DNA of 64,000 bases from a virus (Duplodnaviria; Caudoviricetes). The notes beneath the pieces are model-generated. The model was not told the DNA's origin. It worked only from the letters and a program-made list of their open reading frames with translations, and searched no databases. The translations under genes and the position numbers were made by a program. The DNA is taken from positions 5,857 to 69,856 of IMG/VR virus record IMGVR_UViG_3300037524_000636; one strand, 5' to 3'. Position 1 is the stretch's first letter; every line of letters starts with the position of its first letter. Below are positions 3,065 through 62,591 of this stretch, in pieces.

Positions 3065-6000
3065 TGCCACAAGCTGCTGCTGCTGTCGTTGCTTACGTCG
3101 TTTCATTCGGAGCGACCACCACGCTCGCCGCACTCACGACGGCTCAGATCGTGACGTTTGCTGTCGTGAGCGGATTGTCCGCGCTCACGGTGGTGCAAGG
3201 CTTGAAGGCGCGCCGTTTGGCTGCCGGCGTGAAAGATCGAGATGGTGGTCGAAAGATGATGATCCGCGATCCGATCGCACCGCGTGAGCTGGTGTATGGA
3301 ACTGTGCGCAAGTCCGGCCCGGTTGCCTTCATGCACACGACCGGCACGACGAATGAGTGGCTGCATCTGGTCATTCTGCTCGCCGGTCACAAGGTTGCCG
3401 CGATCAACGACATCTTCTTCGGTGATGAGCTTGTGCCGCTCGATGGCAGCGGCAACGCCACTGGTCGTCTTGCTGGCTTCGCGACAGTAAAGAAGCACCT
3501 GGGAGACGACAATCAGACCGCCGACACCGACTTGATCGCAGCCGCACCGGGATTGTGGACAAGCGATCATCGTTTGCGCGGTGTGGCTTACCTGTATGTA
3601 AAGCTCAAATACGATGCTGACCGTTACCCCAACGGCCTGCCCAACATCTCGGCCAACGTCGACGGGCTTGAGGTTTACGACCCACGGGATGCTGGCACGC
3701 GGCACACGACCAACCCTGCTCTTGTTCTGCGAGACTACCTGACGAGAACCAAGCTTGGTCCGAAGTTCCCTACGTCAAGCATTGACGACACCGAGCTGGC
3801 GGCGTCGGCGAACATCAGCGACGAGTCGATTGGACTCAATGGTGGGTTCACCCGCACTTGCGACATGGAGAGCGGGAACAAGCACATTGGCTGCACCGAC
3901 CTGTCAAACGTCCACATCGGCCAACGAATCTCTGGCACTGGTATTCCCGTTGGCACGATCATCGTTGCCATCCACAACGTGCCGGACCTGACGTTCTTCA
4001 CTGTCAACAAGGACCCGACAGCGACGAACAGCTCCGCGTCGTTGACGTTTGGTGACGCCGAGCCACGCTACGCCTTCAACGGGGTGCTTTACAGCGACGT
4101 CCTGCCAGAGGAAGCCATCGCCCGTATTCAACTTTGCATGGCGGGCAGCGTCGTCTACTCAGGCGGCAAATGGGTGGTCAAGGCCGGGGCCCACCAATCA
4201 CCATCAGCGACATTCACCGACGGTGACATCGTTGGCCCGGTCACGATCGCGCCGCGACTCTCGCGCAACGAGCTTTGCAATCGGGTCAAGGGGACGCGCA
4301 TGAGTCCGGAGGATCAGTGGGTGATGAAAGACTTTCCACCGGTCAAGAACGCGACCTACCTTTCGCAAGACAGTGGTGAGGAGCTTTGGCTCGATCTTGA
4401 GCTGCCCGACGTCACGACCAACTCGCTCGCGCAACGGTTGGCGAAAATCCTGCTTGAGCAATCCCGTCAGCAAATCACCACTACGGTATCACTCAGCTTG
4501 AAGGCTCTCAACGTGCGGGCCGGTGAAGTGATTGCGTTGTCGATCGAGCGACTGGGCTGGTCGAGCAAGCCGTTTCTCGTCTATGATTGGCGACTCGTGC
4601 CTGATGAGACGCCGAGAGTCGAGTTGATGTTGCGCGAGACGGCTGAGGGCGTGTGGGACTGGAACAACGGCGAGGAGACGACGGTCGACTTGTCACCGGA
4701 CACAAATCTGCCGGACCCGCGCATCGTCACCGCGCCAGAGTGGGAGGAGACCGACCCGTTCCTCAGCGGCACCGACCAGCTGATCAAGCTCGCCGACGGC
4801 ACCATCATCTCCCGGCTGCGCATCGCGTGGCAAGAGCCGCCCAACATTGCCGTGACCGCTGGTGGCCGCATTGAGTTGCAATGGCGCGCGCCGAGCGAAG
4901 GCGGCGACAATGAATGGTTGTCCGTCGAGCTGCCCGGTGATGCTCGCTACCACTACATCTTCCCGGTTGTCGACGGCGAGTTCCTAGAGGTGCGTATTCG
5001 TGCCATCAATGCACTGGGCGTTCACAGCCAGTGGAACCTTTCCGAACCGATCGAAATCATCGGCAAGACCGAGCCGCCTGACCCGCCGCTGACGGTCGAC
5101 TCCTTTGCCATCGTTGGTGGTGCCGTCATCGTCTACACGCCGCCGAGCGAGGTTGATTTCAGCCACGTCAAGGCAACGTGGGGAACGGTTGATGACATCG
5201 ACAACCTCGACAACGAGAGCGCGGAGTTCTATGGCGACCGCATCACCATCACCGGCCTTGAGCGCGGCGTCACCTACTACGTTTGGCTTCAGTCGATCGA
5301 CACGACGGGCAACGTCGGCGACCCCACCCTCAGCATCACCGTCGAGGCTTTGTTCCCGGGCTTGGTCACCGGCCTGACACTCGACAGCGGCACCGACCAG
5401 CTTGTCAGCCTGCAGGACGGCACCGTCGTGCCACGGCTGCGCGTCGATTGGACCGCGCCCACTGAGAATTGGGACGCCGACTTCGACTTCATCGAGGTCC
5501 AGTCCCGGCTGACCGGCGAGACGGAGTGGGACGACCAAGGCCGTGTTCGGGAGGCGCATACCTTCATCGCCCCGGTCATTCAGGGCGTGGAGTATGATGT
5601 GCGCGTGCGCGGCGTCACCATCAACGGCTACGCGGGTGGCTGGACAACTGTCACGGCACATGAAATTGTCGGCAAGGGCGCGCTGCCCAACGTGGTGACG
5701 AGCTTGGCGGCTGCGGCGATTCGCGGCGGCGTCGTACTCACCTACACGCTGCCAGCCGACTTGGACCTGTCCCACGTCGAGATCATTTGGAACGCGGTCA
5801 ACGACCTCGAGCACGTTGGCGGGTGGGGCGGCGCGGAGTTCTATGGCGACCGCTTCACCATCAGCAACCTGACGCCGGGCACGCCGCTCTACTTTTGGGT
5901 CCGCACCGTCGACACGACGCGCAATAAGAGCAGCTACGTGGGCAGCGTCACCGCAACACCGCTTGAGCTGGCGGAGACGATTGCTGAGTCGCTTGCCTCG

Positions 6001-14200: not shown

Positions 14201-14656
14201 CACCGGACTCATTTTCATACTCCCTACGGAGACATTCTATTTAAGAAAAGCCCGGTCGGGGGGAACGCGTCGGCTGGGGTGCGCCTAGCTGAGCACTACA
14301 CCGAGCCGGGTTACACCGCCATCATTGGCGATGGGACAAACTCAGTCATTGCTTACGGTCTTTTAAGTGGCTTGTCTGAGCTTCACCAGCCAATGGTCGT
14401 TCGGAATGGTCCAGCCAGTCGCGTTTTTTGTGTAAAGGCAGGCAGCAGCTACACCAAGACCAGTGGATATTCCGATATCACGGGCGACTTGAGAACAACT
14501 ACGGTCCTGTCTGCCTTCTCGTCTATAAACGCATACAAGAACTGCGAGATTGGAGGCTTGCTGATGGCTAGAAGCTGGATTCAACCAAAGGAGCTGTCAC
14601 TCATCAAGTGGCAGATGAAGAACTACCGCCGCGCCCAGTCACTCATCGCCGCGTAA
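11279..14656 (+). CDS. Large adhesin-like protein with LamG/ConA-like domains and an LVIVD-repeat beta-propeller
   Basis: Seven ~49-aa repeats (GNYAYV...AIIDITDP..PVWV); GDGVDDRL LamG-like motif; upstream GGAGG. Confidence 0.7.
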   Translation: MLFPRKTSRLKAATVCVMPKDYDSSFQAYRNIGLNRRNQWGPFRCFTTAAADRWTVPYDAVRIGDKIELFIDHAPNSTATGSTQFLLHQGTSSLAANLSYALSWNTSGLLRFQVSDGTNIIDVASGSSVAGISGGAGVRQRIKVLYIRDTGAGQFSLRYYRTSDFSVPVHEVTDWVERDNGEMTGTSIGATRVVSAVLTICSFYDALAGGTYGSWFGASIRVNDVLVYAVDWTTGTEGFPVAYPPLAGLPGDCYVKDGILVTPGKNWAACLLPLLGATDDFDLIMRVKPATGAGSYYVIGQLHTGVLGSWGLIYADATNVTFRVFDNSGVAVNHTLLSSSLVTADWKWLRLTRVASTGVVQFWLKDGTSPVVPESWGTADGSVTAVSGTLSSTNRLLIGHGGNVWKGECSWVQYATEIDGDPICFIDFRQVSDKAHLMTIPSGVAGDADIWGAYGATRVGNARIAKAGWALKPLGTADPVEVDWTGKPVFDFPGGTKLGGYDAITIANPNGAAATETTLTYEDDTTAVISPQGATLQYGCRSIVTEVKGPTPGTSLNGSRYIEVRGNYAYVCCYSYDAVAIIDITDPAVPVWVSAFRGPTPGTSLDGARAIVFSGNYAFVGCGDRNSVAVLDFTDPVAPVWVTETQGPTPDTSLDGVYHVALSGNYLYVACTDRDSLAIIDVTDPTVPVWVTEVRGPTPGTSLDGASGVLINGNYAYVGCQTRRNVAVIDITTPTSPVWVTEVRGPTPGTSLDGATFCTLLGNYLLVGTQSRGSMAVLDVTNPASPTWVTEIRGPESNAFMGGSTNVSVSGNRAYVSSSVRESLTVIDITNPAAPLWIGEIAGDIYGTTMDQCFYNVVVGDYVLTASLNGDVFHSHDRFILDNLNKYQGKRITKIESTDGKILLLPDHQTAPTNRGTAGGSASITRRTRRVQLAVMTGETGRIWVGDGVDDRLFFLNDGLLDCNVGDMFILSALHRTHFHTPYGDILFKKSPVGGNASAGVRLAEHYTEPGYTAIIGDGTNSVIAYGLLSGLSELHQPMVVRNGPASRVFCVKAGSSYTKTSGYSDITGDLRTTTVLSAFSSINAYKNCEIGGLLMARSWIQPKELSLIKWQMKNYRRAQSLIAA
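12908..13880 (+). repeat. Seven tandem 147-bp LVIVD-type repeats
   Basis: Trp codons at 13052 and 13199 are 147 nt apart; GPTPGTSLDG recurs. Confidence 0.85.
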
Positions 14657-14675
14657 CAATCAACCCAATATACCG

Positions 14676-15071
14676 ATGGCTATGCTTCAACTCGTTCACT
14701 TCAACAAGGACAAGAGCTTCAACCGCTTTTTCCTCGGCACGCAGGAGCAACTGAGCAAGACGCTCTTCACCGACGACGGCCTGCCGCGCACGCAGCTTGT
14801 CGGCTTGCCGCCAGCGCACGACCCAAGCAGGGAGGAGGTTCGCCGCACGATCGAAGGGTGGATCAAGCTCGACATCCCAGCGGACGTCATTGCCGCACGC
14901 GAAGCGGTAGCGATGGCGCAGGTCGAGGAGGAGGCGGAGAAAGACCGCATCCGCAAGTTCAAGGACAAGCTCGACGAGCACATTGCCGCCGAAAGCATGA
15001 CCGGCGCGCAGATGTTCGCGGCGATCAAAACTCACGCCCGCATCCTCCGCTACCTGATCAAGAACATCTGA
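14676..15071 (+). CDS. Hypothetical protein
   Basis: Compact ORF with A/C-rich leader and charged C-terminal helix. Confidence 0.6.
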   Translation: MAMLQLVHFNKDKSFNRFFLGTQEQLSKTLFTDDGLPRTQLVGLPPAHDPSREEVRRTIEGWIKLDIPADVIAAREAVAMAQVEEEAEKDRIRKFKDKLDEHIAAESMTGAQMFAAIKTHARILRYLIKNI

Positions 15072-15072
15072 C

Positions 15073-15213
15073 ATGAGCACCCCAAGTCCACAACTCCTGA
15101 CGGCCTTCGACGTTTTCTCGACCGAGGCCGCAGACAGTGGCGTTGCTTTCGACCTGATCGTCACGCCGACCTCCGTCCGCGACGGAATCGACATTGGCAA
15201 CATCATGGCTTGA
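15073..15213 (+). CDS. Small hypothetical protein (46 aa, MSTPSPQLL...; not in ORF track)
   Basis: ATG 15073 to TGA 15211-13 fills the gap between two genes. Confidence 0.45.
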   Translation: MSTPSPQLLTAFDVFSTEAADSGVAFDLIVTPTSVRDGIDIGNIMA

Positions 15214-15226
15214 GACCGTAGAACAA

Positions 15227-15733
15227 ATGAACACCATCAACCACATCGACCCAACGGTGGCCCTTGGAGAAGGCTGCCAAGTCTGGCACTTCGCCGTCGT
15301 GCTGGCCGGGACTGTCCTCGGCCGCAACGTGAGCGTCGGCTCGCGGGTGGAGATAGGCCGAGGCAGCACCATCGGCGACAACACGCGAATTGGCAGTGGC
15401 GCGTTTCTGCCAGCGAACAGCAAAGTCGGCAACGGGGTTTTCATCGGCCCCAACGTCACGTTCACGGACGACCGATGGCCCATCGCCGGGAACTATGACT
15501 ACGTGGCCGAGCCTCCTAACGTTGGCGACTTTGCCAGCATCGGAGCCGGTGCTGTCATTCTGCCCGGCGTCATCATCGGTGCGCACGCCATGATTGGTGC
15601 CGGCGCGGTTGTCGCCCACCACGTCGAGCCCGGCGGGGTCGTGCGTGGGGAGCCGGCCAAGTTGCGTCGTGTCATCTCACAGCCGCACCCATTGCACCGT
15701 CCGCAAGCCTTGCAAGAGGCCTTGTCGTCATGA
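15227..15733 (+). CDS. Hexapeptide-repeat sugar N/O-acetyltransferase (WbpD/WxcM-like)
   Basis: Left-handed beta-helix repeats (IGRGSTIGDNTRIG), IGPNVTFTDD..P, IGAGAVV..V...GEPA. Confidence 0.85.
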   Translation: MNTINHIDPTVALGEGCQVWHFAVVLAGTVLGRNVSVGSRVEIGRGSTIGDNTRIGSGAFLPANSKVGNGVFIGPNVTFTDDRWPIAGNYDYVAEPPNVGDFASIGAGAVILPGVIIGAHAMIGAGAVVAHHVEPGGVVRGEPAKLRRVISQPHPLHRPQALQEALSS

Positions 15734-16623
15734 AGTCGATACGGCTTGGCGCCTACATGATCGTCCGGAACGAGCGGGCCTTGATCGAGCGGGCGCTGTC
15801 GAGTCTTCACAGCGTTGACGAGTTGATCGTCGCCGACACTGGCTCGACCGACGGCACGCAAGAGTTGATCGCCACAAGCTTCCCAGATGTCCGGTTGCTG
15901 CAAACGGAGTGGGACGACGATTTCGCAAGGGCGCGCAACTTCGCCCGGATGCACGCCACCGCCGACTGGTGCATCATTCTCGATGCCGATGAGTATCTGT
16001 CGCCCATGTCGGTCTCGGTGATTCGCGAAGCCATCATCAGTCGTGCGCAGGACGACCAGAACGCGTTCCGCCTGCTTTGTCAGGCCGAGCGCGTTCCGAG
16101 GCAGAAGCACACGATGATCCGGGTTCACCGAAACAAGCCGGACATCTTTTGGATCGGTGCGATTCACGAAGCCCTTAACGTCTTCGATGAAACCGTAATT
16201 GAGGGAGCAATACTGACCTACGGTTACAGCCCTTCGCACGAGAAGGACCCAGAGCGCACGATGCGGATACTTGAGCGCGAGCATGCCCGCATGCCTGACG
16301 AGCCACGAACGCTCTACTACCTAGCTAGGGAGCACTTCAATTCGTTCAACTACAAGCGGGCGACAGAACTGTTTGAGAGGAGAGTCAAACAACCGGGATA
16401 TCTGCCCGAGTTAGCTGACGCCTGGCTCTACCTGGCCAGGTCTCACTGGATCAATGGGCGCCCGGACGATGCACGAACAGCCTGCGCTCAGGCTCTCGTT
16501 GTCAACGCCGACTTCCGCGAAGCCCTGATGTTCATGGCCGAGATGAGTTGGCCGCACAACGCGTCGCGATGGCGCGAATACGCAATGCACGCCACAAACG
16601 AGCGCGTGCTTTTCATCCGATGA
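15730..16623 (+). CDS. GT2 glycosyltransferase with TPR-like C-terminus (SunS/SgtA-like)
   Basis: MIVRNE..L.S..VDELIVADTGSTDGT, W.DDFA.ARN, ILDADE, W.GAIHE, R.LYYLARE. Confidence 0.88.
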   Translation: MKSIRLGAYMIVRNERALIERALSSLHSVDELIVADTGSTDGTQELIATSFPDVRLLQTEWDDDFARARNFARMHATADWCIILDADEYLSPMSVSVIREAIISRAQDDQNAFRLLCQAERVPRQKHTMIRVHRNKPDIFWIGAIHEALNVFDETVIEGAILTYGYSPSHEKDPERTMRILEREHARMPDEPRTLYYLAREHFNSFNYKRATELFERRVKQPGYLPELADAWLYLARSHWINGRPDDARTACAQALVVNADFREALMFMAEMSWPHNASRWREYAMHATNERVLFIR

Positions 16624-17810
16624 ACTGGCAACCTGTCATTGCCTACCGCAGCCTGATCGAGGTCGAGTGCCGCCGTTGGTGTGGCGGCAGCGACATCGTC
16701 CACGACGAAATGATCATGCTCTCGCAAGACTACATTGCACGATATTGGCCGGCGCGCATCGAAACCACCGAGCACACCGTTGTCCGTCAACTCTGTCGTT
16801 GGGCGTGCCAGCACGTTTGGAAGCGCAGACGCGACGAACGCCGCTTGTTCGTCGAACTCAAGCACGCGCAGAAGACAGTTCCTGACACGCCAACAGCTTT
16901 TCCCACACTCGCCCTTGTCTCTGTATGCTCTGCGATAGAAAAGCTCAGTGGAAGCGATAGGATTGTCTTCCACGAACATTTCGAGTGCGGCTTGAGTTGG
17001 ACTGACGCAATGCGGGCCGCCGGACTGTCGAGCGTCCGCAGTGTCACCAGACATCGCGACAGGTTCCTGCGACGCTTTCGACGGACCATGGCAAGTCTCG
17101 TCATGCTTTCGTCACTACCAGTGATTGCCAGCGACCTTGGCCCGCCTCCGGAGCCCGCCTACCTAAGCAACGCACGAGTCAAGGCCACGTGGACGTGGGC
17201 GCAGGATGCGTGGGTCGTAATGCAACAGCAGGCCGACCGCATTGCCGAGCTTGAGCAACAGCTCGCCGAGAAGCCTGTTGAGGTGCCAGAGCCGGTCGCA
17301 ACGGTCACCTTTCCTTCCTCGGTGCTCATGCGCTGGGAGTTGCTGGAGTGGGGGCGTGAGAGTCTGTATCGCGTTCACTTCAGCGAGCCTCTCGGAGTGC
17401 TTGACCCGCAGCCGTTGCCGGCCGAGCCAGTCATCATCAGCTCGCAGGACTTCGTTGCTTGGGGCTCCTTCCCTGGGAGCAACTGGACCGGGGCGGGCGC
17501 GCCTATGCCCTCCGGCGATGGCCTTGGCTGGTTCGCTCCGGCGAACTGGCTGGAGTATGACGTGCCGGCTGGCTCGTGGAGCAAGGTGGCCGTGGCAATG
17601 GCTGTGCCGGAGGGCGGAGGGGAGCTTGCCCTGACCGTGGGCGACCGAACCGTCACGCTGCCTGTTCCCGGCACCGGCGCGTGGAGCACGTTCGCCGATC
17701 TGGTATTTGACTTCCCATTACTGGGACCGGCCCGCCTGCGCGTGACCGGGGCCAAAGGCGGCACCGGTTACTGGGTCGGCGACATCAAAGAAGTGAGATT
17801 GCTGCCATGA
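16620..17810 (+). CDS. ECF-sigma-like N-terminus fused through a hydrophobic segment to a CBM6-like domain
   Basis: Sigma region 4-like IEKLSGSDRIVFHEHFECGLSW..; hydrophobic ASLVMLSSLPVIA; CBM6-like LGWFAPANWLEYDV..VPGTGAWSTF; ATGA overlap gives start 16620. Confidence 0.55.
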   Translation: MNWQPVIAYRSLIEVECRRWCGGSDIVHDEMIMLSQDYIARYWPARIETTEHTVVRQLCRWACQHVWKRRRDERRLFVELKHAQKTVPDTPTAFPTLALVSVCSAIEKLSGSDRIVFHEHFECGLSWTDAMRAAGLSSVRSVTRHRDRFLRRFRRTMASLVMLSSLPVIASDLGPPPEPAYLSNARVKATWTWAQDAWVVMQQQADRIAELEQQLAEKPVEVPEPVATVTFPSSVLMRWELLEWGRESLYRVHFSEPLGVLDPQPLPAEPVIISSQDFVAWGSFPGSNWTGAGAPMPSGDGLGWFAPANWLEYDVPAGSWSKVAVAMAVPEGGGELALTVGDRTVTLPVPGTGAWSTFADLVFDFPLLGPARLRVTGAKGGTGYWVGDIKEVRLLP

Positions 17811-18064
17811 ATGAAATACTACTCGACCCGGAATATACCTACATCATCGGCGTGTTGCTGGCCATCGGAGCGGTGCTGAAACACGCACTCCCGACCTTCC
17901 CCAATCGGTTTATCCCGCTCGTCACGCTGGTCGCCGGCACCGTCGCTGTCTGTTGGTGGGCGGAAGCATGGGACAAGCACACCATTTTGGCCGGCATCAT
18001 CGTCGCATTGACGGCAACCGGCTTTCACTCCGCTACGAAAAGTCTGTCTGGAAAGGAACTATGA
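17807..18064 (+). CDS. Holin
   Basis: 85 aa, three hydrophobic segments, IGAVLK..P.RFIP..G..TGFH pattern of phage holins. Confidence 0.8.
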   Translation: MNEILLDPEYTYIIGVLLAIGAVLKHALPTFPNRFIPLVTLVAGTVAVCWWAEAWDKHTILAGIIVALTATGFHSATKSLSGKEL

Positions 18065-18495
18065 GAACCTACTTCATTTCGCTGCTGGCGGCACTGCTGC
18101 TGGCTTTCACTGGATGCACGACGTCCAACTCACTTCAGCCAGTCGCGGCTCAGTTGGCAGTCCAATACGCCACGCTCAAGGTGCTTGAGGATCATCCGGA
18201 GTATGGGCCGCGCATCATCGAGATTACCCAGCACGTCCGAGCCGTTGCTTCAGGCGACGCGGCGGCGACCGTCTCCGTCATTGACTCGTTGATACGCTCG
18301 CAGATCGACTGGAAGAAGCTGAATCAATCTCCGGCGGACGCGCTGATGGTCAACACGCTCCTGCTCGCCATTCGCAGTGAGCTTGAGACACGCATCGGCA
18401 ACGGCATCATCGACGAGAAGGCGATGCTGACGATTGCGCAGGTCGCCGGATGGATCGAGGAGGCCGCCGCCTCAACGGTTCCGCGCACTGGGTAA
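18061..18495 (+). CDS. Lipoprotein in lysis cassette (possible spanin)
   Basis: Signal peptide with lipobox AFTG-C; after holin. Confidence 0.65.
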   Translation: MRTYFISLLAALLLAFTGCTTSNSLQPVAAQLAVQYATLKVLEDHPEYGPRIIEITQHVRAVASGDAAATVSVIDSLIRSQIDWKKLNQSPADALMVNTLLLAIRSELETRIGNGIIDEKAMLTIAQVAGWIEEAAASTVPRTG

Positions 18496-18502
18496 CCCCA
18501 AC

Positions 18503-19045
18503 ATGGCACCCCGCACGGCAGCGCACGAGGCGCCAACTGTCACGCATCACGAGAGCCGCATCAGCCGGGTCGAGGCCGGCCTCGATGCGTTGCGCGGAGA
18601 CTTCGATGCGTTGCGTGGTGAGTTCCGCAACCTCACCACCGCGATCGAGAACTGGCGCAGGGACGAGAACCAACGGCAGCGGCCACAATACGGCGCACTT
18701 GGAGCGTTCGCGCTCGGCATCATCGGCATCACGTTTTCATTCGTCGCTCTTGTCCGCGCCCCCATCGCCGAGAACCAAGCACGCATGGAGCAGCAAATGC
18801 TGCGCATGGAGCAGAAGCAGGACAACCGGCTGCTGTCATTGGCTGACGACTACGAGCGGTTCGGACGCTCACAGGAAAATATCATCCACACGCACGACTT
18901 GGTCACGGACCTGAAAGCGCGGGTGCGGGAACTGGAGATGAAGGTGGCGGCAGATGGCGCGGCAATGAAGCATCTGGAGGGCAGGCTGGAGGACGTCGAC
19001 ATCGTTGGCAGCCGCCGCTGGATCAAGGGCGACGGCGCGCCGTAA
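18503..19045 (+). CDS. Coiled-coil protein with a central TM helix (lysis-associated)
   Basis: Heptads on both sides of LGAFALGIIGITFSFVALV. Confidence 0.6.
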   Translation: MAPRTAAHEAPTVTHHESRISRVEAGLDALRGDFDALRGEFRNLTTAIENWRRDENQRQRPQYGALGAFALGIIGITFSFVALVRAPIAENQARMEQQMLRMEQKQDNRLLSLADDYERFGRSQENIIHTHDLVTDLKARVRELEMKVAADGAAMKHLEGRLEDVDIVGSRRWIKGDGAP

Positions 19046-19056
19046 TCAACTTTCCC

Positions 19057-19368
19057 TCAGGGTTCTGGTGTTCTTTTCCCTAAGGGTTCAGGCGGGACCG
19101 GGTTGTCTCCTCCCGGTCCCGCCGCTCCCCCAGTTCCTGAAATCTGGTTGCTGATTCGATTGAGCAGCGTGTCAATCCGGCCCCGCTCTGCTTCATCGGG
19201 ATACCACTCGTCGTCGCCGCTCATGGTGTTGCGCCACATCTCTCCAGAGTGTGCTCTTGCTTTGCGTAAGTAGGGAACACACTCAGCCAGCACCCGCCGC
19301 AACTCCAGCAGGTGGGCCTCCAGATAGACGACGCGCTCGCTGCGCTCGGTGATGGCATGGTTGCTCAT
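19057..19368 (-). CDS. Hypothetical protein
   Basis: Last gene of an overlapping minus-strand run. Confidence 0.5.
   Translation of the reverse strand: MSNHAITERSERVVYLEAHLLELRRVLAECVPYLRKARAHSGEMWRNTMSGDDEWYPDEAERGRIDTLLNRISNQISGTGGAAGPGGDNPVPPEPLGKRTPEP
19091..19123. terminator. 12-bp perfect hairpin at the convergent junction of late and minus-strand operons
   Basis: ggcgggaccggg / cccggtcccgcc; no clear U-tract. Confidence 0.45.
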
Positions 19369-19622
19369 GGGTTTCTAGGCTCGCAGTGAGGCAACATCAC
19401 GGAATCCACGAAGCAGCCAGTCTGGTAGAACCGTTTCGGTTTCTTGGTCCAGTCGATCACCCCGTCACACTCGCGCATCAACGTAAGCTGATGCCCGTCG
19501 GGAAATACGTCGAGTGGGCCATGTCCTGTCCCGCCTCCGGTCATGGTAGTTGAAACCACACGGTAGAGACCGGGACCTAGTTTCGGGTGCTCTATCACGT
19601 CACCTGTCTTGTTCAGTTTCAT
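19365..19622 (-). CDS. Hypothetical protein
   Basis: 4-nt overlap with neighbour; GGGTGHGP.DVFPDG motif. Confidence 0.6.
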   Translation of the reverse strand: MKLNKTGDVIEHPKLGPGLYRVVSTTMTGGGTGHGPLDVFPDGHQLTLMRECDGVIDWTKKPKRFYQTGCFVDSVMLPHCEPRNP

Positions 19623-51131: not shown

Positions 51132-51841
51132 ACGTCAGCAACAATCTGATCCGTCTCGTCTACGTTTGCTTCGGCTCGGAGTCATTCGCGCGACTTGCCC
51201 GATGGTCGCTCTCGACTCTCCGGGCGACGAAGACAAGGTTGCCCGTCTGGGTCTTGACCAATCGCACTATGGCGCACGACTTCTCGGAGTTCGACCACGT
51301 CGTGCGGGTCGATCCCGATCCCGCGCTCGTGCGCGTGGGCCATCGCGCGGCCCACCTCGACTACAAGGGTGCGCTCATTGTCGCGCTCCTTGAGCGAGAG
51401 TGGTTGCCGATCGTTACGGTCGACGTTGACAGCGAGTTCCTCCGGGACCCATCGCCTGAGTTGGAGTCGATCGTCGAGCCGTTCGCAATGTGCCCGGCTC
51501 CCGATGATCCGATCATTGAGCATGCGCAAGGGAGCTGCATCGAGCGTCAGAGTGGCCTCATGGCCTTCCCGATCGCGCGCGATCACGAGAGCATCGCCCG
51601 GCTTTACCGAAGAGCGTTCGACGAGCTTCGCCTGCACACGAGCGAAGGCTGGCGAAGCGATGCCTTGCTTGAAGAGCGCGCTTGGTCGCTCGTGCACGCC
51701 AGGCTCGCGCCGCAAGTCACACTCTTGCCCAGGACGTTGAACTGGTCGCGCCTGTGGGGCATGCCTCCGCACGATGTTGCGCTCGTGCATCATCATGGGA
51801 ATGCGAAGTTCATCCTGCCGAACTTGGAGGGCTTGCGATGA
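51128..51841 (+). CDS. GT-A fold nucleotide-diphospho-sugar transferase (GT8-like)
   Basis: VWVLTN, DXD (VDVDSEF..DP), QSGLM.F, LLP..LNW, LVHHHG..K. Confidence 0.6.
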   Translation: MNVSNNLIRLVYVCFGSESFARLARWSLSTLRATKTRLPVWVLTNRTMAHDFSEFDHVVRVDPDPALVRVGHRAAHLDYKGALIVALLEREWLPIVTVDVDSEFLRDPSPELESIVEPFAMCPAPDDPIIEHAQGSCIERQSGLMAFPIARDHESIARLYRRAFDELRLHTSEGWRSDALLEERAWSLVHARLAPQVTLLPRTLNWSRLWGMPPHDVALVHHHGNAKFILPNLEGLR

Positions 51842-53406
51842 CTCGCACCTACACGGAGCAAGCGTCGAGACGCGCCTGGAGTGATGCCCTCACGACCGAC
51901 CGGGGGCGCAAGGACGCACCTGCCCTGGACGAGGACGATCTTGTCGCGTCGACGTGCCGAGACTCGCTCGAGGACTTCGTCCGGGAGTTCTGGGACGAGG
52001 TCGTGCCGCAGCCCCTGGTCTGGAATTGGCACATGACGTGCATTTGCGAGGCATTGCAGCGCGTCGCCGAGCGCGTCTTCGCTGGCAAGCCGAAGCTGTA
52101 TGACCTGATCGTCAACGTCCCGCCAGGCACGAGCAAGAGCACGATTTGCAGCGTCATGTTTCCGGCCTGGACGTGGACCCGGATGCAAAGCGCGATCACG
52201 ATAGGCGTCAGCTACACCGAGCGACTCGCGCTCAATCTCGCGCGCAAGCAGCGCGAGTTGATCCGAAGCGACAAGTATCAGCGCGTCTTCGGGCTCGGCA
52301 AGCTCAAGGTCGACCAGGACCTGAAGGGTCACTACGAGAACGAGCAGGGAGGCGCGCGCATCTCGTTTGGCACCGGGGGCACGACCGGCTACCACGCCCA
52401 CTTCCTCATCGTCGACGATCCGCTCAATCCGAACGAGGCGGCAAGCGAGACTGAGCTTCGCTCCTGCAACGACTGGATGGACTCGACCTTGTTCACTCGC
52501 AAGGTCGACAAGGAGGTCTCGGCGACGATCCTGATCATGCAGCGCTTGCACCAGGCGGATCCGACGCAGCACATGCTGGACCGGGCGAACGACGACAACC
52601 CGATCAAGCACATCAGGCTGCCAGGCGAGCTGGTCGCAGGCATCGAGCCCGTTCCGGCGTCGTTGCGCGAGCACTACGTCGACGGCCTGCTCGACGTGCA
52701 TCGGTTGAAGCGACGACAGCTCGCCGAGCTCCGGATCAAGCTGGGCGACTACGGTTACGCCTCGCAAATCCTCCAGGTTCCTGTGCCCCCGGAGGGAGGC
52801 ACGTTCATCGTCGAGCGGTTTCGCATCGCGCATCCCACGGTGACGATCGTTCGGCAAGCCCGGTTTTGGGACAAGGCGGCGACGCCTGGGAAGGGCGACT
52901 GGTGCGCGGGAGTCCTGGTGGGTCGCGACATCAACAACGCCTGGTGGGTGCTCGATGTGCGGCGTGGCCGGTGGGACACGCACACGCGAGAGCAGGTCAT
53001 CCGGGACACGGCAGAGCGCGACGGGGCGGCGACGTTGATCGGGATCGAGCAGGAGCCCGGGAGCGGGGGCGTCGACTCGGCCTGGATGACGATTTCTAAC
53101 CTGGACGGATTCAACGTGCGGGCCTTTCGCTCGACTGGCTCGAAGGTCGAGCGCGCGACGCCAGTCTCCGTGCAAGTCAACGCGCGCAACTTTCTCATTG
53201 CCGCCCAGGCGTCGTGGCTCTCCGACTTCATCTCCGAGCTGCATCACTTCCCATTCGGCCTGCACGATGATCAAGTCGACGCTCTCGCCGGAGCGTTCAA
53301 CATGCTGGCAGGGGTGGGTCCGCGCAAGCGAGCAGGCGCGCTCATGCGCAGGCGAGTCGTGCGTCCGCCTTCGCCCGACGATCGAGCGACGACAATACAG
53401 GCATGA
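51838..53406 (+). CDS. terL: Terminase large subunit
   Basis: WNWH, Walker A NVPPGTSKS, Walker B LIVDDP, nuclease WDKA..D..G, G.KV.RA, HDDQVDA. Confidence 0.93.
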   Translation: MTRTYTEQASRRAWSDALTTDRGRKDAPALDEDDLVASTCRDSLEDFVREFWDEVVPQPLVWNWHMTCICEALQRVAERVFAGKPKLYDLIVNVPPGTSKSTICSVMFPAWTWTRMQSAITIGVSYTERLALNLARKQRELIRSDKYQRVFGLGKLKVDQDLKGHYENEQGGARISFGTGGTTGYHAHFLIVDDPLNPNEAASETELRSCNDWMDSTLFTRKVDKEVSATILIMQRLHQADPTQHMLDRANDDNPIKHIRLPGELVAGIEPVPASLREHYVDGLLDVHRLKRRQLAELRIKLGDYGYASQILQVPVPPEGGTFIVERFRIAHPTVTIVRQARFWDKAATPGKGDWCAGVLVGRDINNAWWVLDVRRGRWDTHTREQVIRDTAERDGAATLIGIEQEPGSGGVDSAWMTISNLDGFNVRAFRSTGSKVERATPVSVQVNARNFLIAAQASWLSDFISELHHFPFGLHDDQVDALAGAFNMLAGVGPRKRAGALMRRRVVRPPSPDDRATTIQA

Positions 53407-60983: not shown

Positions 60984-61012
60984 AGCCTCACCCTGTGCGG
61001 TGAGGCTTTTTT
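60984..61012 (+). terminator. Rho-independent terminator before the head operon
   Basis: agcctcacc/ggtgaggct stem plus T-run. Confidence 0.75.
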
Positions 61013-61040
61013 GTATTCTCAAATCAAGCATAATCCCAAA

Positions 61041-62591
61041 ATGACGAAAAGGAAGCAGGCAGGTTTCTGGGCGGAGGCCCGAAGTGGCTCTCGGCGCACT
61101 TCAAAAAGTTCACTTGTGAGAAACGACTCAGCGCCGCCTGCCGAAGACCAGGCGACGATTGAGCACCTCACATTCAACCTGAAGACGTCGCTGGTTCGGA
61201 ACGACAAGATGGAAGGTCGCGACTACCTGGTTGTTCCGATGGTGATGATGGTCGAGGGCGTACATGTGGGCTCGAATGGCCCGCTACTCTACCCAGCGGA
61301 CGAGCTGAAGAAGACTCCAGAAGTCTGGAACATGAAGCCGGTGGTCGTCTATCATCCGGAAATCAACGGACAGGGAGTCACCGCATGCGATCCCGACGTT
61401 GCGACCAAGCAAAAGATTGGCGTGATCATGAACACGCGCTGGGACGCGCGCGCGAAGCGACTCAAGGCCGAAGCGTGGCTGGAGGAGCATCGCGTGCGGG
61501 AAGTCGACGATCGCATTGCCAACGCGATCGAGGAGAATCAGGTCCTCGAGTTGTCGACTGGGCTCTTCACTGACAACGAGACCAAGACTGGCGAGCACAA
61601 TGGCGAGGCCTACGTTGCGATCGCGCGCAATTATCGGCCTGATCATCTCGCTGTCCTGCCCGACAGGATTGGTGCATGCTCGGTTGCCGATGGCGCTGGC
61701 TTCATCCGCAATGAGCTGATCGGGCACAACGTGCCGCGCGAGCAGATCGACAAGGTCCGTGCGTTGGTCTTGAATACGGTGGAGACACTGGGCTTGCGCG
61801 AGCTTGTCGTGAATGAGCTGTCACACGGCGCCGTCCGCGACCAGCTGTTTGACGCGCTGATCAAGCGGTTCCCGGGCAAGAAAACGGAGCTCGGCAACGC
61901 TCCCGGTCCGTGGGTGGAGTCCGTCTTTGATGGCTTTGTCATCTTTGAGCGCGAGGGAAAGCTGTATCGGCTTCCCTACACGATCGAGGATGACACCGTG
62001 CTTTTGGCTGACAAGGAACCAACGATGGTCAACCGAGTCGTCGAATATCGAACCGTGGCAGGCGCCGTGATTGGAAACAACCTGACCACCAACAGTCCGA
62101 AACTCAGTAACAACGAAGCAAATACACAAATGAAAGAGAAACTGGTCAATGACCTGATCGCCAACCACGGCTGGGAGGAAACCGACCGCGCGTTCCTGCT
62201 CAGTCTCAACGAGGACGGCTTGTCCAAGCTGTCCAAGTTCAAGAAGGACGTGCCCGTCGCATCCCCGCACGGCGCATCCCCGCCCGTCGCGAACAAGCAG
62301 ATGACTCCCGAGGAGTTCATCGCTCAGGCACCCGAGGGCATGCGCGACATGCTGCAAAGCGGGCTGATCTCGTTCAACGAGCAGCGCGCCAGCCTGATCG
62401 CTTCGATCAAGACGAACGAGCTGAACGAGTTCAGCGACGACGAGCTCGGCGCGAAGAGCCTACGGGAACTGAAAGTCCTGGCGAAGCTCGCGACGAAGCC
62501 AGCCGTGCACAACTACGCCGGACTTGCGCCGGTCGCGGGCGCACCCGCGAAGAGCGTCGAGACCTGCCTTCCCCTTCCGAAGTGGGAGTGA
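61041..62591 (+). CDS. Prohead protease/scaffold (DUF2213-like)
   Basis: VP..EGV..G..YP.EL..WN.KPVVV.HP, ELSTG, PDHLAVLP..GACS.ADG; helical scaffold C-terminus. Confidence 0.85.
   Translation: MTKRKQAGFWAEARSGSRRTSKSSLVRNDSAPPAEDQATIEHLTFNLKTSLVRNDKMEGRDYLVVPMVMMVEGVHVGSNGPLLYPADELKKTPEVWNMKPVVVYHPEINGQGVTACDPDVATKQKIGVIMNTRWDARAKRLKAEAWLEEHRVREVDDRIANAIEENQVLELSTGLFTDNETKTGEHNGEAYVAIARNYRPDHLAVLPDRIGACSVADGAGFIRNELIGHNVPREQIDKVRALVLNTVETLGLRELVVNELSHGAVRDQLFDALIKRFPGKKTELGNAPGPWVESVFDGFVIFEREGKLYRLPYTIEDDTVLLADKEPTMVNRVVEYRTVAGAVIGNNLTTNSPKLSNNEANTQMKEKLVNDLIANHGWEETDRAFLLSLNEDGLSKLSKFKKDVPVASPHGASPPVANKQMTPEEFIAQAPEGMRDMLQSGLISFNEQRASLIASIKTNELNEFSDDELGAKSLRELKVLAKLATKPAVHNYAGLAPVAGAPAKSVETCLPLPKWE

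Follow-up and report, generated by a model that had tools for sequence, protein, structure and literature searches.

A phage gene joining a predicted ECF-like sigma factor, a signal-peptide-like segment and a CBM6-like module in one reading frame

Introduction

Can a sigma factor and an exported carbohydrate-binding module be the two ends of a single phage protein, and on which side of the membrane would each end lie? The question is raised by a gene of an uncultured wetland phage of ~70 kb, represented by the IMG/VR record IMGVR_UViG_3300037524_000636 (69,856 bp, estimated to be 91% complete). We analyzed a window of 64,000 bases of this record (its positions 5,857 to 69,856), to which all coordinates refer. 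The gene encodes a protein of 396 residues, here called P0001, in which a part resembling sigma factors of the extracytoplasmic function (ECF) type is followed by a weakly hydrophobic stretch and a domain resembling family 6 of the carbohydrate-binding modules (CBM6). To our knowledge, it is rare for a sigma factor to be fused to its own membrane sensor, only IutY has been dissected experimentally, and the described cases are all bacterial and contain an anti-sigma domain. The fusion described here is genuine. In the reading that we favor, to which we assign a probability of roughly one half, the sigma part is cytoplasmic and membrane-tethered, the CBM6 module is exported, and the sigma part becomes active only after proteolytic release.

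The fusion is encoded in one intact reading frame

Across all 180-nt windows between ~16590 and 17700, including those at the junction, the P0001 frame had the best codon log-likelihood. With the best codon score in frame throughout, the open reading frame (ORF) is a real gene; its GC content by codon position is 0.64/0.51/0.72. The start codon, ATG 16620, overlaps the stop codon of the upstream gene as ATGA and agrees with the N-termini of two homologs, P0006 and P0019, in the alignment.

The junction between the sigma part and the hydrophobic stretch was checked in assembled contigs of public runs, namely the DNA runs X1, X2, and X3 and the RNA library X4. In X1 and X2, both wetland DNA runs, the whole stretch is identical, and both may be the source of this DNA. 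A contig of X3, which comes from a different sample, covers positions 16886-17228, and a contig of the metatranscriptome X4 covers positions 17049-17239; both span the junction and show 0 differences and 0 gaps. No indel was found in 16300-18300 among the contigs of X1-X4, 17085-17095 included. A preliminary description of the locus had allowed for a frameshift-fused pair of genes, which is contradicted by the intact junction in three DNA runs and one RNA library and by the like fusion of the homologs P0005 and P0006. The sole difference in 16300-18300 is a T for G at position 17420 in one X3 contig with a depth of 2.15. The RNA contig is a weak hint of transcription.

An exhaustive search of 1.84 billion representative proteins yielded very few relatives beyond the CBM core, and a word-indexed protein search found nothing further. 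Two relatives are fused like P0001 and share 33-36% identity with it: P0005 (414 aa; RefSeq WP_374239020.1 from the Thiocapsa sp. N5-Cardenillas isolate assembly, named "sigma factor-like helix-turn-helix DNA-binding protein") and P0006 (397 aa). A single HMMER alignment between residues 103-396 of P0001 and 104-414 of P0005 runs with 36% identity through sigma-4, the hydrophobic stretch, and the CBM. The remaining relatives carry one half only. P0019 (179 aa) consists of the sigma part, P0003 (240 aa), P0004 (197 aa), P0026 (258 aa), and P0010 (303 aa) of the C-terminal module, and P0016 (711 aa) of the C-terminal module with an added GH71 domain. Whether homologs would be full-length or encoded as two genes had been named as decisive at the outset; P0005 and P0006 speak for the former, but split versions of both halves also exist. 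Since the fusion is kept despite large divergence in three independent assemblies, it is not an error, and we conclude that the sigma part, the hydrophobic stretch, and the CBM6 module are genuinely fused in one ORF.

P0004 and P0005 are carried on contigs of 72,093 and 68,170 bp, respectively, as compared to 69,856 bp for the phage record. These contigs may derive from related phages or prophages, a possible pointer to purple sulfur bacteria as the host group.

The N-terminal part resembles a two-domain sigma factor

An AlphaFold2 (AF2) model of residues 1-159, built on four sequences, had a mean predicted local distance difference test (pLDDT) score of 78.5, with values of 84-95 for the first 70 residues. 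The top Foldseek matches of this model in the PDB were nearly all sigma factors, with WhiG, SigL, RpoE, and SigH at E values of 0.017-0.1 and AlgU, SigW, and CnrH also in the list. An exhaustive VIA-align search gave a Z value of 7.8 for SigK, on which sigma-2 and sigma-4 were each superimposed at 2-3 Å, and of 7.5-7.6 for RpoE, BldN, and AlgU; by themselves, such Z values lie in the grey zone for helical proteins, and the identification as a sigma factor therefore draws on the purity of the match list and on both domains matching in the right order.

Residues 1-85 were superimposed on the sigma-2 domains of RpoE, AlgU, sigma70, SigE, SigR, and SigC at 2-3.3 Å over 66-81 residues (Z 6.5-7.6). 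These alignments include RpoE (5uxx; Z 7.6, 81 aa, 3.3 Å), AlgU (8z6g; Z 7.5, 74 aa, 2.7 Å), and sigma70 region 2 (1sig; Z 7.5, 68 aa, 2.0 Å). Residues 94-159 fitted the sigma-4 domains of SigL, SigD, SigE, SigC, SigF, and SigR at 2-4 Å over 57-72 residues, with SigL (3hug) and SigD4 (3vep) both at Z 7.3 and with Z values of 6.6 both for SigF (8jzt; 57 aa, 2.0 Å) and for region 4 of SigE bound to -35 DNA (2h27; 66 aa, 3.0 Å). A structure search of BFVD returned phage sigma factors exclusively, and the best named feature clusters in the ESM-Atlas bear sigma or related helix-turn-helix families (top scores 0.95-0.97).

Among the sequence profiles, phrog_36 ("transcriptional regulator") of PHROG was weakly matched at residues 102-154. 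The homolog P0005 scored 27.1 bits for Sigma70_r4_2 (cut-off 25.7) at the position aligned with sigma-4, and matched TIGR02937 (sigma70-ECF) over residues 11-154 with an E value of 3e-6, but with 26.9 bits it stayed under the cut-off of 42.9. Both domains are predicted with good confidence (pLDDT up to 95), and P0006 and P0019 have kept them. The layout is that of an ECF sigma factor, because only sigma-2 and sigma-4 are present, joined by an 18-residue flexible linker, without sigma-1.1 or sigma-3. By fold, residues 1-156 represent a divergent two-domain ECF-like sigma factor.

Some sigma-fold phage proteins found in BFVD are much longer than a sigma factor, namely A0A6C0RTV6 (546 aa), A0A0Y0AU18 (506 aa), and A0A9E8S4J0 (455 aa). 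They may be other phage sigma fusions.

The C-terminal domain has a predicted CBM6/CBM35 fold

In the full-length model, residues ~270-396 have pLDDT values of 84-95. Foldseek matched this domain in the PDB with 2cdo, 5fui, 2w1w, 1uxz, and 1w9s at E values of 2e-6 to 2e-5, a probability of 1.0, and TM-scores by target of 0.63-0.76. P0001 itself stays under the gathering cut-off of the Pfam family CBM_6 (PF03422; 17.2 bits vs 28.9, E 0.0067), and the homologs P0006, P0016, and P0010 pass it at 52-55 bits. The motifs WLEYDV and TGAW are present. In the alignment to the CBM6 1w9s, which binds beta-1,3-glucan, W304 (in GW) and W355 (in TGAW) fall on the motifs GW and TGGW, and are presumably the sugar-stacking aromatic pair of the CBM6 loop site (cleft A). 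The usual Asn of the C-terminal N-x-D is replaced by Asp (GDI) in P0001 and is kept in P0006. Judged by the model and the profile matches, residues ~271-396 adopt the CBM6/CBM35 fold.

The two domains are joined by a signal-peptide-like stretch

Sigma-4 ends with ...FLRRFRR at residue 155, and the hydrophobic stretch begins at residue 157. It forms a single peak at residues 156-173, the strongest of the protein (Kyte-Doolittle 15-mer 1.8), flanked by a charge of +6 N-terminally and of -2 C-terminally. The following VIA/SD is a predicted small-x-small site of the signal peptidase I kind. The stretch looks like an internal, possibly cleavable, signal peptide and not like a classical membrane helix. 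Besides GPPPEP, there is a second Pro-rich stretch at residues 258-272.

All three fused proteins have the same junction, in which a basic cluster is followed by 14-17 residues that are small or hydrophobic, then by a small-x-small site, and finally by a polar residue and prolines. The small-x-small sites are VIA/SD in P0001, ASA/QT in P0005, and AAA/D in P0006. As a hydrophobic peak, the junction stretch ranks second in P0006 and first in the other two proteins. In the alignment, it falls on the signal peptides at the N-termini of the stand-alone homologs, and the LGPPPEPAYLSNARV motif is kept directly after the signal peptides of P0003, P0004, P0026, P0016, and P0010. In P0026, P0016, and P0010, N-terminal Lys/Arg residues and a strongly hydrophobic core (Kyte-Doolittle 2.2-2.55) are followed directly by GPPPEP. 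Because their signal peptides directly precede this motif, the C-terminal module is predicted to be extracytoplasmic in its free form. The fused stretch sits exactly at the signal-peptide position of the free modules, which is our main argument for an N-in/C-out topology of P0001. All elements foreseen in the preliminary description were thus found in a single ORF and in the expected order, i.e., a sigma-like N-terminus with a region 4-like helix-turn-helix, a hydrophobic segment, a Pro-rich/coiled part, and a CBM6-like C-terminus.

The juxtamembrane region matched no known family in Pfam, and residues 157-275 gave no usable match in the ESM Atlas. In P0016, a signal peptide, the GPPPEP module, and CBM6 are joined to GH71, the alpha-1,3-glucanase family. 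On account of this protein, the GPPPEP juxtamembrane module appears to be a rare N-terminal piece that is portable among secreted proteins which bind glycans.

A membrane-tethered sigma factor as the favored reading

According to the favored reading, one 396-aa protein would be made late in infection, translationally chained to the holin. Residues 1-156 would remain in the cytoplasm as an ECF-like sigma factor. The stretch of 14-17 residues, which comes after RRFRR and one residue past the last sigma-4 helix, would serve as an internal signal-anchor and send ~225 residues over the inner membrane, from the GPPPEP motif through the long helix and the Pro-rich linker to the CBM6-fold domain. The sigma factor would then be held at the membrane by its own -35-binding domain and, since this domain joins the membrane without a linker, would probably be inactive. 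Release might be constitutive, with signal peptidase I cutting at the small-x-small site and an intramembrane (site-2) protease removing the leftover peptide. It might also be regulated by a proteolytic cascade that is set off when the CBM6 domain binds a glycan. This release model is based on IutY, for which release is shown, and on ECF52, for which it is proposed (PMC8999054, PMC5826349). Membrane topology, cleavage, sugar ligand, sigma activity, and target promoters are thus all features that we infer. A more specific version, which we regard as unlikely, treats the signal peptide as a fuse. The sigma factor would be parked at the membrane beside the holin and freed by Sec/signal-peptidase/site-2-protease processing, by an envelope glycan, or by the collapse of the membrane caused by the holin.

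Several observations weigh against a membrane-tethered sigma factor. P0001 reaches no sigma threshold among the hidden Markov models (HMMs) of Pfam or NCBIfam, and a six-frame scan of the genome was likewise empty. The fold statistics are modest, with Foldseek E values never below 0.017 and Z values <8. A crude k-mer enrichment over 27 intergenic regions revealed no candidate target promoter. The gene occupies the third-last place in a ~40-kb late transcription block and is translationally coupled to the holin gene, and the end of a late operon is an odd place and time for making a new sigma factor. Unlike in ECF52 and IutY, there is no anti-sigma domain in P0001, and sigma-4 is followed by the hydrophobic stretch without a linker. 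The closest homologs, P0003 and P0004 (48-49% identity), are called as separate proteins; they begin at or just inside the hydrophobic stretch, without a basic residue. Finally, the stretch is short and weak, with a Kyte-Doolittle 19-mer value of 1.37 and a summed Hessa scale of +6.9 kcal/mol. As MASLVMLSSLPVIA is short and weakly hydrophobic, its stable insertion into the membrane is not assured. The signal/TM-like stretch that had been proposed was recovered as a hydrophobic peak, but it is too weak and too short for a classical membrane helix.

Alternative readings

Two products might arise from the one ORF, the full-length fusion and a secreted protein that starts at the internal Met157 (ATG 17088) and consists of MASLVMLSSLPVIA as the signal peptide, GPPPEP, and CBM6. 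The secreted form would act alone in the periplasm, e.g., by binding envelope glycan at lysis, and the fusion would be a recent read-together of two genes. Met157 aligns with Met1 of P0003 (MSALW...), P0004 begins a few residues later, and the halves are separate elsewhere, with the sigma part alone in P0019 and the secreted module alone in P0026, P0016, and P0010. However, the Met is missing at the equivalent place in the more distant P0005 and P0006, and a basic n-region would be missing from a signal peptide that begins with Met157. The sequence preceding ATG 17088 (22 nt) is G+C-rich and has neither a Shine-Dalgarno motif nor an A/C-rich leader, although the Shine-Dalgarno test is weak because most genes of the phage have none. 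Nor would a second product remove the full-length fusion, since there is no stop codon. We consider two products rather unlikely.

It is equally doubtful that P0001 is entirely cytoplasmic, its hydrophobic stretch staying uninserted, and that a C-terminal extension regulates the sigma factor as in ECF41 and ECF42. The CBM6-like domain would bind a sugar or nucleotide-sugar, perhaps the product of the acetyltransferase or of the family 2 glycosyltransferase (GT2) encoded upstream, and fold back to switch the sigma part. Such extensions are the second most common regulation of ECF sigma factors (PMC7826278), the hydrophobicity of the stretch is under the usual membrane-helix threshold, and the gene follows two sugar-modifying enzymes in an ATGA-linked chain. 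On the other hand, the homologs of the C-terminal module include proteins with clear N-terminal signal peptides, among them one that carries a GH71 glycosidase, and the basic cluster, the hydrophobic stretch, and the small-x-small site are kept in three fused proteins despite 33-36% identity.

The late-operon position and the Ala/Ser/Gly-rich stretch suggest a tie to lysis control. In a further, improbable explanation, P0001 would be a lysis accessory protein, i.e., an antiholin or lysis-timing regulator. Its sigma part would no longer act in transcription, the stretch would be an anchor like those of signal-arrest-release (SAR) proteins, and the CBM6 domain would bind the envelope, so that the protein modulates the holin. 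The stop codon of the fusion overlaps the start of the holin gene, the stretch is rich in Ala, Ser, and Gly, most clearly in P0005, and no recognizable endolysin was found in the genome, which makes the lysis system unconventional. Against this stand the well-predicted sigma domains, conserved in P0006 and P0019, and the place of the segment. Known SAR domains, as in SAR endolysins and T4 RI, are N-terminal Gly/Ala/Ser-rich segments of lysis-cassette proteins and do not follow a folded domain; the segment of P0001 is internal, behind a folded domain of 156 aa.

PHROG and Pfam scans of ~35 ORFs across the record showed no endolysin, other lysin families and the large tail proteins being unscanned. 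Six-frame scans of the record for Phage_lysozyme, Amidase_2, SLT, Peptidase_M15_4, and Glyco_hydro_19 were empty. The fusion ORF itself was considered as the missing endolysin and rejected, because its N-terminal part has a sigma fold and residues 171-270 contain nothing beyond a helix, a hairpin, and a linker.

An assembly or sequencing artefact that joined two genes is very improbable, for although split forms occur among the homologs, the X3 and X4 contigs cross the junction without difference or gap and three independently assembled proteins are fused.

Gene neighborhood and search for related phages

The coordinates of the fusion gene, its parts, and its neighbors are compiled in Table 1. 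Four successive ATGA overlaps (15730, 16620, 17807, and 18061) link five genes, encoding the acyltransferase, the GT2 protein with tetratricopeptide repeats (GT2-TPR), the fusion, the holin, and the lipoprotein, which are predicted from the sequence to form one translationally coupled unit. The gene thus lies where the preliminary description had put it, between glycosylation genes (acyltransferase and GT2-TPR upstream) and lysis genes (holin downstream). The genes at 18061-18495 and 18503-19045 matched no spanin or other family, and their order and shapes are unlike an i-spanin/o-spanin pair. The left end of the window consists of tail genes, which encode a tape measure protein, a distal tail protein, and LVIVD-repeat proteins of 2278 aa and 1125 aa (Pfam/PHROG).

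Table 1. Positions of the fusion gene, its predicted parts and the neighboring genes in the 64,000-base window
Feature	Position	Strand	Basis and remarks
Open frame around the fusion	16548-17810	+	ORF list
Whole fusion gene (sigma, signal-anchor, CBM6; predicted)	16620..17810	+	396 aa plus stop, ATG 16620
Sigma-2-like domain, residues 1-76	16620..16847	+	AF2 pLDDT 84-95; VIA-align
Flexible sigma-2/sigma-4 linker, residues 77-95, without sigma-3 domain	16848..16904	+	pLDDT <50 for 77-94; ECF structures align on either side
Sigma-4-like helix-turn-helix domain, residues 96-156, C-terminal RRFRR	16905..17087	+	VIA-align; weak phrog_36; Pfam match of homolog P0005
Weakly hydrophobic signal-peptide-like segment MASLVMLSSLPVIA, residues 157-170, then small-x-small site (VIA/SD)	17088..17129	+	Hydrophobicity peak
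Conserved juxtamembrane motif (LGPPPEPAYLSNARV..W.WAQ.AW, GPPPEP) and long helix, residues 171-220	17130..17279	+	Homolog conservation; AF2 helix 185-217
Short beta-hairpin and Pro-rich linker, residues 221-270	17280..17429	+	AF2 strands 234-241 and 246-253, low confidence
CBM6/CBM35-fold beta-sandwich (predicted), residues ~271-396	17430..17807	+	Foldseek, Pfam, 1w9s alignment
Hexapeptide-repeat acyltransferase, first of the ATGA-linked chain	15194..15733	+	Pfam Hexapep 5.5e-27; TTG start uncertain
GT2 glycosyltransferase with TPR tail	15730..16623	+	Pfam Glycos_transf_2 1.2e-17 and TPR families; stop overlaps fusion start
Holin	17807..18064	+	Phage_holin_5_2 35.4 bits vs cut-off 29.2; phrog_1129 holin 1.4e-14; start overlaps fusion stop
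Predicted lipoprotein (LAFTGC), 144 aa, all-helical	18061..18495	+	Start overlaps holin stop; no Pfam or PHROG match
Coiled-coil protein, 180 aa, coiled coils flanking a central hydrophobic helix	18503..19045	+	ATG 18503; closes the + strand block; weak family matches only

A scan of 14500-19500 for sigma-70-type promoters and terminators gave results at chance level. CGACAATAG occurs in six exact copies on the + strand (30982, 34045, 34848, 40888, 44886, and 60231) shortly before start codons. With one mismatch, there are 15 copies, which is not above shuffles (10 ± 3.2), and no shared -35 element is visible. The Shine-Dalgarno motif is absent from most of ~36 gene starts in the window, and A/C-rich leaders are common, e.g., before 41608, 9919, and 63178. 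This pattern suggests a host with weak Shine-Dalgarno use.

No phage protein of this architecture was found in INPHARED or IMG/VR. A tblastn search of the GenBank phages (INPHARED) gave no match to the fusion, and the homolog alignment as a query returned no confirmed relative in viral (IMG/VR), metagenome, or genome contigs; nor did P0005 in genome contigs. With P0004, the only hit in viral contigs was an unrelated phage protein that shares the short word EAWSEIQQ by chance, and P0003 retrieved only ordinary GH5-CBM6 enzymes from metagenome contigs. GT2-TPR, the 574-aa ORF 51682-53406 (assumed large terminase), and the 526-aa ORF 61011-62591 (assumed major capsid protein) revealed no related virus record when used as queries. 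The holin query led to one distant locus, without a sigma fusion upstream. A full-text literature search on phage-encoded sigma factors combined with transmembrane segments brought up nothing relevant.

Comparison with known sigma systems

The statement of the preliminary description that no phage example is known agrees with the searches above. As to the precedent that it had drawn, the layout is indeed known from a few bacterial one-component sigma factors, but the closest cases are the actinobacterial ECF52 and IutY and not Planctomycete proteins. Like the phage fusion in the favored reading, ECF52 (SCO4117 of Streptomyces coelicolor) unites in one polypeptide an ECF sigma factor, a membrane segment, and, outside the cytoplasm, a Pro-rich linker and a carbohydrate-binding module (PMC5826349, PMC8999054), and its release by proteolysis has been proposed (PMC8999054, PMC5826349). 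In S. clavuligerus, a separate ORF encodes the CBM part, much as in the split forms of the phage fusion family. ECF52 has, however, a ZAS-type zinc-finger anti-sigma domain between sigma-4 and the membrane, whereas the phage fusion lacks both this domain and an HxxxCxxC motif. There is no room for a ZAS domain, since sigma-4 ends at ~155 and the hydrophobic stretch begins at 157. Moreover, ECF52 is chromosomal and reported only from Actinobacteria, whereas the fusion is phage-encoded; the carbohydrate module of ECF52 is smart00776 (PMC5826349), that of the fusion has the CBM6/35 fold; and the putative membrane segment of the phage fusion is weak and signal-peptide-like.

In IutY of Pseudomonas putida, an ECF243 sigma/anti-sigma hybrid, the sigma part is fused via a single membrane segment to a periplasmic part (PMC8999054). 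Regulated proteolysis by Prc and then RseP has been shown experimentally, and the truncated sigma factor is constitutively active (PMC8999054). In contrast to the phage fusion, IutY has a FecR-type anti-sigma part, receives its signal from a TonB-dependent siderophore receptor, contains no CBM, and is not found in a phage. P0001 is therefore set apart from ECF52 and IutY by the absence of an anti-sigma domain, the signal-peptide-like segment, the CBM6-fold module, and its viral origin.

The SigI/RsgI systems of Clostridium thermocellum share with the favored reading the control of sigma release by extracytoplasmic carbohydrate-binding modules (PMC10328401, PMC12203970). RsgI is cleaved at the membrane by autoproteolysis and then by RseP (PMC10328401, PMC12203970). 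Here, however, sigma factor and sensor are two proteins, the host is Gram-positive, and the sensor is an anti-sigma factor that has a sigma-binding domain of its own. Stand-alone phage sigma factors resemble P0001 in their divergent sigma-2/sigma-4 part of ~160 aa that escapes standard HMMs (BFVD; PMC7826278), and phage ECFs also escaped classification in a large ECF census (PMC7826278). Yet they are soluble, have ~130-250 aa, and usually lie in early/middle gene blocks, whereas the fusion is joined to a putatively exported module and encoded in a lysis cassette.

Significance

The fusion is smaller and simpler than the described cases: sigma-4 leads straight into a signal-peptide-like stretch, and the gene lies in a phage operon with a holin gene. 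Its C-terminal part belongs to a very rare, uncharacterized secreted module with the GPPPEP motif. If the sigma part is inactive, the gene would still mark an unconventional lysis cassette with no recognizable endolysin. If it is active, P0001 would be a compact model (396 aa, three modules) for the silencing of a sigma factor by tethering alone, and phages could make transcription respond to a cue from outside the cytoplasm with no anti-sigma factor involved. Should the signal peptide indeed act as a fuse, last-minute transcription or lysis timing would be coupled to envelope state, and no phage has been described to use such a control principle.

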